A model generated the notes under the pieces. That model did not search any database, had not been told where the DNA came from, and saw only the letters and a list, made by a program, of their open reading frames with translations. A stretch of 64,000 nt of DNA from an uncultured Candidatus Saccharibacteria bacterium. GTDB taxonomy: Bacteria > Patescibacteriota > UBA1384 > XYA2-FULL-43-10 > 1-14-0-10-43-13. Of the stretch, positions 33,809 to 37,272 are shown one piece after another (position 1 is the stretch's first letter; every line of letters begins with the position of its first letter). The DNA lies in the NCBI GenBank assembly GCA_964543385.1, contig CAZIYE010000001.1, positions 127,143 to 191,142 on the forward strand. The letters run 5' to 3'. The position numbers were made by a program, and so were the translations under genes.

Positions 33809-34162
33809 TTATATCAGTTCACTGCTGACACAGCAGAGGTCGATGACCTCTTGTCCGATCTGACGAATAACCGTCGCGTACTCGTCATCGCCGAAATCGG
33901 ACGAGCCGATCCACTGAATCTGGGCACCGATTGCCTCAGCAATCTTAACCGCCGTGTGGAAACTGCCAATCAGCTCTTCAGTTGGTGCATTCCGACAAAT
34001 CGAAGCCGGAACTGACTCCAAGCAAGCTGCCAGAACCTCAAGCGGTAGCATGCGGCTACCCAGACTTGACGTGCTTTCGACTCCGTAGATATCGTCATGT
34101 AGACGACGACGAAGCACATAAAGCGCATCTTGAAACCCATTAATGGCATCCATAAGTGCCAC
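33809..34162 (-). CDS. hypothetical protein on a GC-elevated patch
   Basis: 117-aa ORF with GC near 54%. Confidence 0.3.
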   Translation of the reverse strand: MALMDAINGFQDALYVLRRRLHDDIYGVESTSSLGSRMLPLEVLAACLESVPASICRNAPTEELIGSFHTAVKIAEAIGAQIQWIGSSDFGDDEYATVIRQIGQEVIDLCCVSSELI

Positions 34163-35508: not shown

Positions 35509-36336
35509 CTACTTCTTCGCAACCTTGATACCAGGACCCATGGTTGTCGATAGATAAATCGAATCAATTCTTTTAGGCAGGTGATCAATAATTGCCACAA
35601 AATTCTGTTTCATTCTATCTGCGCCAAACGATATTTTACCGATAGTCATATGAACAACATTCAATTTATCAGCTCTAAATTCAACTTTACCCCCCTTTAA
35701 TTCTGCTGCTGCTTTTTTAACATCAGGAACTACGGTACCAGCTTTTGGAGAAGGCATTAGGCCTTTAGGACCTAAAACTTTAGCTAGTTGTGCTAATTTT
35801 GGCATTACCTTCATATCAGCAATCATAACATCAAAATCGATTTTTCCAGCTTTGATATTGACTATAACCTCTTCTACATTATCTTCAATAACTTCCAATA
35901 CTTTTTTCTCTTTGGTTACGCCACCTGGCAAGATTACCATGCCACGAGTATTTTTTTCCTTGATGTTTAATTTGACATGCATTTCTACGGTTGCATCAAA
36001 CTTTGAAGGATTTGTTTCGAGGGCAAGAGCAATAGCCTCATCTACAGAATATTCTTTATCTTTTTCAACCTTTTCAGCGATTTGGCGATATTTTTTGCCA
36101 TGTCTAGGCTTTACCCTTTGCTGTACTTTTCTAGCAATTTTTTCCTCACGCTCTTCTGCTTTTTCCTTCTTCTCTTCTGCTTTCTTTTCTTCCTTCTCAG
36201 CTTCTTCTTGCATCTTGCGCAATTTCTCACGCTCTTCTGCTTGTTTTAGAACCTCTTTTTCCGAAAGTTCGACAGTTGCTTCTTGTACAACCTCTTCTAG
36301 GACTTTCTCTTCCTTTTTCACATCTTTCTTAACCAT
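35509..36336 (-). CDS. rplA: 50S ribosomal protein L1 with a roughly 70-aa Lys/Glu-rich N-terminal extension
   Basis: L1 core (GMVILPGG..., GPKGLMPSPKAGTV). The N-terminal about 70 aa is a KEEK/AEEKKEK low-complexity region that typical L1 lacks. A candidate promoter TTGTCA-17-TATAAG lies upstream. Confidence 0.85.
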   Translation of the reverse strand: MVKKDVKKEEKVLEEVVQEATVELSEKEVLKQAEEREKLRKMQEEAEKEEKKAEEKKEKAEEREEKIARKVQQRVKPRHGKKYRQIAEKVEKDKEYSVDEAIALALETNPSKFDATVEMHVKLNIKEKNTRGMVILPGGVTKEKKVLEVIEDNVEEVIVNIKAGKIDFDVMIADMKVMPKLAQLAKVLGPKGLMPSPKAGTVVPDVKKAAAELKGGKVEFRADKLNVVHMTIGKISFGADRMKQNFVAIIDHLPKRIDSIYLSTTMGPGIKVAKK

Positions 36337-36462
36337 TTTTCTCCTTTGTGGTACAAGCGTCCAAAAGATTAGACTCCCACTTAATTTAGTAATACTTTAT
36401 TCTTATAACAAAAAAACTGTTTTTTGACAAGGAAATCCCCCGCTATATAGCGAGGGATAGGT

Positions 36463-36547
36463 TGGTCGGGGCCCCCAGAATCGAACTGGGAAATCTGCAG
36501 AGGATACTTTTGTATCTTGCAGCGCAACTTCCTGTTGCCAGGCCCTG
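36463..36547 (-). tRNA. tRNA-like gene with an expanded 18-nt anticodon loop (intron-containing tRNA, pseudo-tRNA or tRNA-like element)
   Basis: The minus-strand sequence CAGGGCC-TG-GCAA..TTGC-G-CTGCA[18 nt]TGCAG-ATTT-CCCAG-TTCGATT-CTGGG-GGCCCCG-A-CCA folds into a canonical acceptor (6/7 bp), D-arm, T-arm (TTCGATT loop) and an encoded CCA. The anticodon stem, however, encloses 18 nt instead of 7. Confidence 0.45.
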
Positions 36548-36578
36548 AAAAAACAAAAATCCGCGACTGTCGCGGATT
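36547..36578 (-). terminator. rho-independent terminator downstream of pth
   Basis: On the minus strand ATCCGCGAC-AG-TCGCGGAT is followed by TTTTTGTTTTTT. Confidence 0.65.
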
Positions 36579-36609: not shown

Positions 36610-37272
36610 TTACTGTGAATCAAATTTCACTTCAAGCGTATGAGCCGGAATTTCTGTCTTACTACCGAGAAATGGCATGATATATTTGATAATTTCTTCT
36701 ATCATACTTTTTAGAACTGGCTTTTCTCTCTGGTTAAATTTTGACAATACAAAATCGGCAGTATCAATATTGTTCATTATTGGCTCTGGCTTGTCAGCGT
36801 CTCCACCGATGGCATTTATACCAATACGGATACGCAGAAAGCTATTGTCCCCCAACAAATCAATAATGTTTTGCAAACCTTTTTGCCCGCCACTAGAACC
36901 CTCATGACGGATACGTGCTGTGCCAAGTGGCAAGTCTTTATCATCAGATATTACTATCAGATCAGAAATATCCATTTTGTAAAATGACATTATTTTTTGA
37001 ACTGCTTGTCCAGAAAGGTTCATATAAGTCTGAGGTTTTACTAAAATTAACTTCTCACCCTTATATAAAGTCTCTGCGATCATAGAATCAAACTTATCTG
37101 ATTTCTGGAAATTAATGCATTCCCCATCCATCATCAATTCGTCATCGCAAATAATTTGATCAAGAAAATAGAAGCCGGCATTGTGACGAGTTCCTTCATA
37201 CTGTTTACCTGGATTTCCTAAACCAACGATTAATTTCATTATTTTCCATTCATCATTTTTTACATTTTTCAT
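36610..37272 (-). CDS. pth: peptidyl-tRNA hydrolase
   Basis: MKLIVGLGNPG...RHNAGF signature. The conserved start is probably the internal ATG at 37239; the ORF as called has an 11-aa extension. Confidence 0.85.
   Translation of the reverse strand: MKNVKNDEWKIMKLIVGLGNPGKQYEGTRHNAGFYFLDQIICDDELMMDGECINFQKSDKFDSMIAETLYKGEKLILVKPQTYMNLSGQAVQKIMSFYKMDISDLIVISDDKDLPLGTARIRHEGSSGGQKGLQNIIDLLGDNSFLRIRIGINAIGGDADKPEPIMNNIDTADFVLSKFNQREKPVLKSMIEEIIKYIMPFLGSKTEIPAHTLEVKFDSQ

Follow-up and report, generated by a model that had tools for sequence, protein, structure and literature searches.

A putative non-decoding tRNA-like RNA with an extended arm in place of the anticodon loop lies between pth and rplA in two small bacterial clades

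Introduction

To our knowledge, only a handful of tRNA-derived RNAs that have left translation are on record in bacteria, and these usually still look like tRNAs. The non-proteinogenic tRNA-Gly of Staphylococcus is a pseudo-tRNA recruited outside translation; the tRNA-like domain of transfer-messenger RNA (tmRNA) belongs to an alanine-charged molecule of ~350 nucleotides (nt) with a G3:U70 pair, an open reading frame (ORF) and pseudoknots; and YrlA is not known to have an acceptor-CCA end, its 5' and 3' termini being part of the Ro-binding stem. Here, we describe an 85-nt tRNA-like element on the minus strand of a 64-kb stretch of DNA from an uncultured bacterium (positions 127,143 to 191,142 of GenBank contig CAZIYE010000001.1; hereafter, the window), which is located between pth, the gene for peptidyl-tRNA hydrolase, and rplA, the gene for ribosomal protein L1, and in which a bulged double helix stands where a tRNA has its anticodon loop.

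Bacterial pseudo-tRNAs outside translation include tRNA-Other of Bacillus cereus, which bears a Trp anticodon, targets a T-box and is non-decoding and dispensable yet retained (PMC3399842). A tRNA-shaped module may also form the 3' end of a longer transcript, as does the mascRNA of MALAT1, which has no promoter of its own and is cut out by RNase P (PMC8457004, PMC4824109). A preliminary description of the window, made from the sequence alone, had read the element as a tRNA scaffold with an enlarged anticodon loop and had offered a mini-intron of the bulge-helix-bulge (BHB) type, a disrupted pseudo-tRNA and a tRNA-like structural element as explanations; comparison with related loci favors the last of these, given a selected fold without an anticodon.

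Results

A cloverleaf with an extended arm

The element comprises the following parts:

36463 to 36547, minus strand: whole tRNA-like RNA, 85 nt including the encoded ACCA (sequence, fold, covariance model with 106 bits and E = 3e-27, and covariation)
36541 to 36547, minus strand: 5' strand of the acceptor stem, CAGGGCC, which pairs with 36467 to 36473 (pairs 2-71, as A.C, A-U or G-C, and 4-69, as G-C or A-U, covary)
36524 to 36538, minus strand: D-arm with a 4-bp stem, GCAA/UUGC, and a 7-nt loop, CAGGAAG, that contains GG (pairs 12-23 and 13-22 covary, as A-U, G.U or G-C)
36495 to 36522, minus strand: extended "anticodon" arm (fold; 4 of 5 outer pairs and most inner pairs covary)
36474 to 36490, minus strand: T-arm with the stem CCCAG/CUGGG and the canonical T-loop UUCGAUU (stem covaries)
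36463 to 36473, minus strand: 3' strand of the acceptor stem, GGCCCCG, discriminator A and encoded CCA (R73-CCA, with R a purine, in all five copies)

Read from 36547 to 36463, these parts follow one another as CAGGGCC-UG-GCAA-CAGGAAG-UUGC-G-CUGCA-A-GAUAC-AAAA-GUAUC-CUC-UGCAG-AUUU-CCCAG-UUCGAUU-CUGGG-GGCCCCG-A-CCA. The cloverleaf that had been claimed for this position is thus present in each of its parts, with a 7-bp acceptor stem interrupted by an A2.C71 mismatch, U8, D-arm, perfect T-arm, discriminator A and CCA. The extended arm consists of an outer helix (CUGCA/UGCAG), a small, CU-rich 1 x 3 internal loop in which A (36517) faces CUC (36500 to 36502), an inner helix (GAUAC/GUAUC) and the terminal loop AAAA (36508 to 36511); the 18 nt that the two strands of the anticodon stem enclose thereby form a second 5-bp helix plus AAAA, and there is no anticodon loop. 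The pairing of these 18 nt had already been proposed, and the minimum free energy fold agrees with it: that fold is the cloverleaf with the extended arm, at -34.4 kcal/mol (z = -3.47; 0 of 200 shuffled sequences were as stable). A kink-turn in the 1 x 3 loop was considered and rejected, as it contains no tandem G.A pairs.

Selection on the fold in two diverged clades

The pth-rplA synteny recurs in many related metagenome contigs, and four diverged copies of the element were found at the same position (loci L001, L088, which is the same as L089 and L130, L163 and L165) in contigs of related Patescibacteria; these contigs come from four further metagenome assemblies (ENA, JGI and Logan). Together with the window, these make up the five sequences compared here. 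L001, whose Pth is 79% identical to that of the window, groups with the window; L088, L163 and L165 form the second clade. A covariance model of the window and L001 sequences matches L165, L088 and L163 at E = 1e-11 to 1e-5. In addition, an independent Logan assembly (L162, run SRR12261227) has a spacer identical to that of the window over all 273 nt, which argues that the element is not an assembly accident.

Between the window and L001 there are 24 substitutions, after which 23 of the 26 pairs are kept in fixed columns and 25 of 26 if a one-column register shift is allowed; five to seven pairs are substituted on both sides and still pair, a result reached in about 0.15% of trials of a neutral-substitution simulation (p ~0.0015). 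Both MAFFT and the alignment to the model mis-register the T-arm of L088 and L163 and the proximal stem of L001, and the five sequences were therefore aligned by hand, with each segment checked against the real sequences. Standard pairs fill 121 of the 124 stem cells of the hand alignment and both sides have changed in 14 of the 26 pairs, as compared with 32-50% pairing and one to three doubly changed pairs when the 3' partner is shifted by 1-3 columns, and RNAalifold recovers the same helices, five in all. In the alignment made with the model, which is less accurate, 92% of cells are paired (35-48% when slid) and 13 pairs are doubly substituted (1-4 when slid), values that 0 of 500 shuffles reach; over both alignments, 92-98% of stem positions are paired and 13-14 of 26 pairs are doubly substituted. 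Judged by these alignments, the cloverleaf with its extended arm is maintained by compensatory substitution in two diverged clades and its fold is under selection, because pairing and double changes far exceed those of the slid-partner controls. The many G.U pairs, moreover, mark the structure as specific to the pth-sense strand. Pth is only ~61-64% identical between the two clades and, beyond the element, nothing in the spacer can be aligned except the promoter and leader of rplA, which argues for long-held purifying selection on the element; by the same comparison, the common ancestor of both clades already had the extended arm, which has since been retained.

All five copies have in common the acceptor stem, U8-G9, G26, an AUU within the variable region, and a purine discriminator followed by CCA; this R73-CCA end is found in all five although the sequence just downstream differs, pair 3-70 is G-C throughout, and four of the five copies have U at -1. 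The window and L001 have a D-loop with GG and a canonical T-loop, that of L001 (UUUGACU) still permitting a G19.U56 pair. By contrast, the D-loops of L088, L163 and L165 lack GG, and their T-loop is an invariant 6-nt CAGGAG set on T-stems that differ and covary. A degenerate T-arm in L088 and L163 was considered and rejected on comparison with L165, which shows that the T-stem is intact in these loci if 5 nt are assigned to the variable region and 6 nt to the loop.

Absence of an anticodon and of an intron

The arm has the same architecture in all five copies: an outer helix of 5 bp is followed by an internal loop, small and asymmetric, and by an inner helix of 3-5 bp that a terminal loop of 4-7 nt closes. 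The internal loops found are A/CUC, A/UU, A/CUC and -/CUAU, and the terminal loops vary in length as well as in sequence (AAAA, GGGAUAA, AAAUA, GAUU), with no U33, purine-37 or triplet common to the five; the ACA (Cys) anticodon that had been suggested as a possibility is conserved in no homologue. ARAGORN with default settings calls no tRNA in the window or in the related loci, and the tRNA model was absent from an Rfam search of a 301-nt region even at E <= 10, nor was any found at E <= 5. The preliminary description had reckoned with such silence of the tRNA finders in combination with a lack of conservation, and the latter did not hold, as part of the clade has conserved the region; it had also envisaged a normal tRNA with a 7-nt loop in related genomes, and no near or far relative has a normal tRNA at this position. 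A canonical decoding tRNA was thus rejected: acceptor stem, D-arm, T-arm and NCCA end are present, whereas a 7-nt loop with U33, anticodon and purine-37, and recognition by tRNA finders and Rfam, are absent.

If the element were nevertheless a decoding tRNA, its insert of 11-14 nt would have to be a mini-intron, BHB-like or other, removed after transcription. The archaeal-type BHB motif (hBHBh') has a 3-nt bulge on each strand, with a 4-bp helix between the two, and calls for a splicing endonuclease (EndA) and a ligase encoded in the genome, and group I tRNA introns are self-splicing, a few hundred nt long and built around a group I core. Introns of groups I and II are the only kinds that have been reported in bacteria, including in a recent survey of Patescibacteria, and introns are known to make tRNA genes of Patescibacteria be missed (PMC13011429). 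An insert of only 11-14 nt is far too short for either kind, and there is no Rfam intron match. With regard to the BHB-type mini-intron of the preliminary description, the bulges are directly opposed (1 x 3 in the window, a single 1-nt bulge in L001 and 0 x 4 in the L088 clade) and not staggered by 4 bp, and the length and sequence of the "insert" vary among homologues; removal of the inner hairpin would leave a loop of 3-4 nt. ARAGORN does offer some support for splicing, in that it accepts the scaffold of the window at its default threshold once 6-14 nt are deleted and, in intron mode with a lowered threshold, calls a tRNA-Asp(AUC) with a 9-nt "intron" at 32/33, although this call requires a shifted and mismatched anticodon stem and is unconvincing. 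In a scan that deleted every block of 5-19 nt of the arm, however, it accepted 46 of 255 variants of the window with 16 different "anticodons", and 2 of 300 variants of L001. We thus consider a spliced tRNA very improbable. The element is predicted to be unable to decode, because its terminal loop is not conserved and no deletion yields a consistent anticodon, and not to be a mini-intron tRNA, because its bulges form no BHB motif.

Origin

The sequence comparisons indicate that the element is tRNA-derived. When its covariance model was run over 80 pth loci of diverse bacteria, the one match was a genuine tRNA-Gln(UUG), at 32 bits, and the element also aligns best to tRNA-Gln among eight tRNAs compared. 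An ancestor of the Gln type is a reasonable lead from this tiny set of eight tRNAs, and not a result; an origin from tRNA-Pro, considered on account of C1-G72 and A73, was set aside since the sole tRNA-Pro compared scores below tRNA-Gln, and neither origin is established.

Genes for tRNA-Gln(UUG) lie ~1.7-1.9 kb upstream of pth at L049:737-811, L055:662-736 and L080:594-668, in metagenome-assembled genomes (MAGs) of Desulfobulbaceae, Acidobacteriota and Holophagales, which represent three distant phyla. These genes may reflect an old linkage of tRNA-Gln and pth that could bear on the origin of the element.

Locus and gene context

On the minus strand, prfB, a gene for an M50B-like membrane protein, and ybaB lead up to pth and the element, which are followed by rplA, rplJ, rplL, a small orphan ORF and tgt; Pfam confirms both neighbors of the element, pth and rplA. 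Homologues of Pth place the genome within Patescibacteria (the candidate phyla radiation, CPR), close to MAGs labelled Berkelbacteria, and the window covers about a tenth of this ~671-kb genome. The features on either side of the element are:

36610 to 37272, minus strand: pth coding sequence, with the element in its 3' region (Pfam PF01195, E = 1.2e-56; homologues)
36548 to 36578, minus strand: hairpin resembling an intrinsic terminator, AAUCCGCG-ACA-GUCGCGGAUU, followed by the U-tract UUUGUUUUUU (terminator scan)
36435 to 36458, minus strand: second GC-rich hairpin, terminator-like, with a weak U-tail (terminator scan)
36402 to 36430, minus strand: rplA promoter, TTGTCA, 17 nt, TATAAG (with TTTGTTATAA; read from the sequence)

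The hairpin 3' of pth stops at the base preceding the first nucleotide of the element, so that the position right after a pth terminator given by the preliminary description is confirmed (hairpin and long U-tract, 36578-36548); in L001 a hairpin of another sequence occupies the same place between pth and the element. The second hairpin starts 4 nt past the CCA and abuts the -35 box of the rplA promoter, and an equivalent hairpin is found downstream of every homologue. The rplA promoter is kept in all related loci, whether or not the element is present. Because this promoter comes directly after it, the element is outside the rplA transcript and is part of the 3' region of the pth unit, rather than of the rplA leader. 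No promoter-like site was read between the pth terminator and the element in the window, and the five copies share no conserved promoter within 350 nt of upstream sequence.

Two pairings of the element with its surroundings were considered and dropped. Anti-terminator pairing of the acceptor 3' strand (CCCCG) with the downstream hairpin (CGGGG) is impossible in L001, and pairings that resemble Shine-Dalgarno and anti-Shine-Dalgarno sequences (AGGAG in the T- or D-loops and CCUC in the bulge, with one another or with the ribosome-binding site, RBS, of rplA) are inconsistent across the five copies and geometrically implausible.

A separate conserved leader lies directly before the rplA RBS, at 36348-36380 on the minus strand, and consists of GUGGGAG, a hairpin that varies in sequence yet remains a hairpin, and G-U-(A/U)-CCAC. 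It is found in every related locus, with or without the element (L001, L002, L007, L087, L088, L090, L163, L164 and L165), has no Rfam match at the gathering threshold, and has the look of an autoregulatory operator that binds L1 by mimicking the L1 stalk of 23S rRNA. Autoregulation by L1 via the element itself was rejected, as this leader lies downstream of the rplA promoter irrespective of the element. The rplA gene (35509-36336, minus strand) is not preceded by rplK, the gene for L11; the gene upstream of it is pth throughout the clade. L1 has a Lys/Glu-rich N-terminal extension, and its best-scoring Pfam L1 stretch covers residues 160-268 of 275.

Two further observations concern protein-coding genes. 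The pth ORF, as called mechanically, has 220 amino acids and starts 11 codons before the conserved MKLIVGLGNPG (37240-37272, minus strand), and the true start is probably this internal Met, as in relatives with Pth of 204-209 amino acids. An orphan ORF of 114 amino acids between rplL and tgt (33809-34153, minus strand) has promoter-like and RBS sequences of its own, a hairpin on each side, ~53% G+C (38.7% for the window) and no Pfam family; it looks like a lineage-specific insertion, because in L001 only ~118 nt separate rplL from tgt.

Distribution and copy number

Across the 64-kb window, ARAGORN with default settings found no tRNA or tmRNA and Rfam no family at gathering score, and the covariance model of the element found no second copy (next best 12.6 bits, E = 0.33), consistent with the statement of the preliminary description that this is the only tRNA-like sequence in the stretch. 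A scan of JGI metagenomes for a degenerate pattern of the 5' acceptor strand and D-arm yielded 70 stretches, 69 of which are chance matches in GC-rich contigs without closing structure; the sole true match is an already known syntenic copy. Collections of viruses, phages and plasmids gave 0 matches. With a single copy in the window, a syntenic true match and no copy in these collections, a mobile or phage-borne element was rejected. A profile search of genome contigs with an alignment of 40 Pth sequences returned mostly distant phyla, with L007 as the only near relative among the matches listed.

The element is rare and patchy: it occurs in two small clades only, and at least seven sister lineages lack it. 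L006, which a Pth tree places as sister to L001, keeps no remnant of it, L090/91 and L007 have short pth-rplA spacers, and the absence from L166 holds at least within 146 nt of pth. In L002-4 and L087 the spacer has a different conserved element instead. At L002:3633-3725 and L087:4855-4990, this consists of a GAGGA...UCCUC stem around a GC-rich hairpin, followed by (A/U)ACUCCAAC-YC-CUACACG and CAUAAAAAA; the fold in L087 has z = -4.4, and no Rfam match was found for it. In L164, two reverse-strand genes, one of which encodes an ankyrin-repeat protein of 292 amino acids, are inserted between pth and rplA (L164:1179-2537). This insertion and the other spacer variants suggest a hot spot of sequence gain and loss at the pth-rplA junction.

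Discussion

We put at about even the chance that the element is a tRNA-derived, non-decoding mimic that is made from pth read-through, matured by tRNA-processing enzymes and active off the ribosome. The RNA would be transcribed as the tail of those pth transcripts that read through the terminator, and RNase P would release it at C1, helped by the U-rich leader and by the RCCA end, which is a ligand of bacterial RNase P RNA. Trimming of the 3' end to the encoded CCA would then allow a stable tRNA mimic of ~85 nt, barred from decoding, to accumulate and to act through its best-conserved parts, i.e., the acceptor stem with the RCCA end and the geometry of the long arm. It might serve as a ligand or decoy for a tRNA-binding protein, the obvious candidate being Pth, encoded immediately upstream, or conceivably as an aminoacyl carrier. 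That the copies form a new family of bacterial tRNA mimics, in which a selected bulged helix replaces the anticodon loop and which, after RNase P cleavage and 3' trimming, act in trans via the acceptor/CCA end (e.g., as a Pth ligand or regulator or as a non-ribosomal aminoacyl carrier of these ultra-reduced Patescibacteria), is a tentative proposal that we regard as possible, if doubtful.

Several observations weigh against a trans-acting mimic. In the window and L001 a strong-looking terminator lies directly upstream of the element, so that the RNA could be rare. Just five distinct sequences of the element are known, and the D- and T-loops are canonical in the window/L001 clade only, which indicates that the elbow is not universally kept and weakens a strict reading as a tRNA mimic. 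Between the clades the discriminator (A or G) differs, as does pair 2-71, and there is no G3:U70, such that no conserved set of aminoacylation identity elements is visible. Finally, the covariance model finds no element at the syntenic loci L006, L002-4, L007, L087, L090/91, L164 and L166, no gene within +/-4 kb co-varies with it in presence, and the element is evidently dispensable, as it is missing from many related lineages.

The main rival explanation is that the element is a cis-acting module for RNase P and 3' exonucleases in pth read-through transcripts, with no job for the released piece; similar to MALAT1-mascRNA, it would define and stabilize the 3' end of pth mRNA and uncouple pth from the separately promoted, L1-autoregulated rplA operon. 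Its location 3' of pth, without a promoter and with hairpins on either side just before the rplA promoter, fits such a role, as do the facts that the main RNase P determinants (acceptor stem and RCCA) are the most conserved parts, that the elbow of D- and T-loops is not kept in the L088 clade, that many lineages do without the element and have other hairpins or nothing in the spacer, and that mascRNA provides a precedent (PMC8457004, PMC4824109). However, RNase P needs no anticodon arm, yet the bulged two-helix arm covaries in both clades; likewise, the T-loop CAGGAG is invariant in three sequences with differing T-stems, and the window and L001 already end pth transcripts at a terminator upstream of the element. 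On balance, we consider a purely cis-acting module rather unlikely, though far from negligible.

Less probable still is a neutral relic, i.e., a dead and decaying tRNA gene whose anticodon loop was lost to a small insertion, as in the disrupted pseudo-tRNA of the preliminary description. A patchy occurrence with repeated loss, including in the sister of L001, the lack of a promoter, the non-canonical D- and T-loops of one clade and the rejection by tRNA finders and Rfam would all be expected of such a relic, and the origin from a tRNA, which it shares with the mimic that we prefer, appears sound. Neutral decay, by contrast, is at odds with compensatory substitutions that maintain all five helices: 92-98% of stem cells are paired with 13-14 doubly substituted pairs, the window and L001 alone already depart from neutral simulation (p ~0.0015), the spacer around the element is otherwise unalignable (bar promoter and leader) between clades with ~61-64% Pth identity, and the extended arm predates the clade split and has been retained. 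As for a sequencing or assembly artefact, in which a normal tRNA gene would have received a local insertion, nothing beyond the oddity of the loop speaks for it, and the identical sequence in an independent assembly from another run and the same extended-arm architecture in four other metagenome assemblies (ENA, JGI, Logan) make its probability practically negligible.

The element has given up its anticodon while every helix appears to be still under selection, and the persistence of dispensable RNA genes is not expected in a genome of ~0.7 Mb. If a processed, trans-acting RNA is indeed made, it would be a compact natural case of a repurposed tRNA body and would provide a handle on tRNA-binding proteins (RNase P, Pth, CCA enzyme) in uncultivated CPR bacteria, although the narrow, patchy distribution limits its wider impact. 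For annotation, the element shows that such RNAs escape both tRNA finders and Rfam, and that an odd anticodon loop is no ground for recording a tRNA gene with an intron.

Among known RNAs, a canonical elongator tRNA (the closest being tRNA-Gln(UUG)) has the same 7-bp acceptor stem, U8, 4-bp D-stem, 5-bp T-stem, variable region of 4-5 nt, purine discriminator and encoded CCA, and the window/L001 clade also shares the GG D-loop and a T-loop of the UUCGAUU type; the element differs in lacking the 7-nt anticodon loop, U33, purine-37 and a conserved triplet, in having an arm of about twice the normal length, and in its C-G pair 1-72, which is U1-A72 in the tRNA-Gln genes seen here. The tRNA-like domain of tmRNA similarly mimics the acceptor and T-arm, ends in CCA and lacks an anticodon, whereas the element is 85 nt long and has G3-C70, and neither the ARAGORN tmRNA search nor Rfam found a tmRNA. 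YrlA-type Y RNAs, which associate with Ro60, are also reported to be bacterial non-coding RNAs that combine a tRNA-like module of D- and T-arms with a long helix in place of decoding (PMC4201824); for the element there is no Rfam match to Y RNA, and no rsr (Ro60) gene is found among the neighbors prfB, M50B-like, ybaB, pth, rplA, rplJ, rplL and tgt. Like mascRNA, the element is tRNA-shaped, would lie at the 3' end of a longer transcript without a promoter of its own and, by analogy, would be expected to be excised by RNase P, but mascRNA is eukaryotic, has a reduced rather than an extended anticodon arm and receives its CCA post-transcriptionally rather than from an encoded sequence, and there is no homology between the two. 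tRNA-Other and the Staphylococcus tRNA-Gly are likewise tRNA-derived, non-decoding and dispensable yet retained; these keep a normal anticodon stem-loop, whereas the loop of the element is gone, and there is no sequence relationship. With a fold that appears to be tRNA-derived, held by purifying selection and unable to decode, the element is best filed with the non-decoding tRNA-like RNAs.

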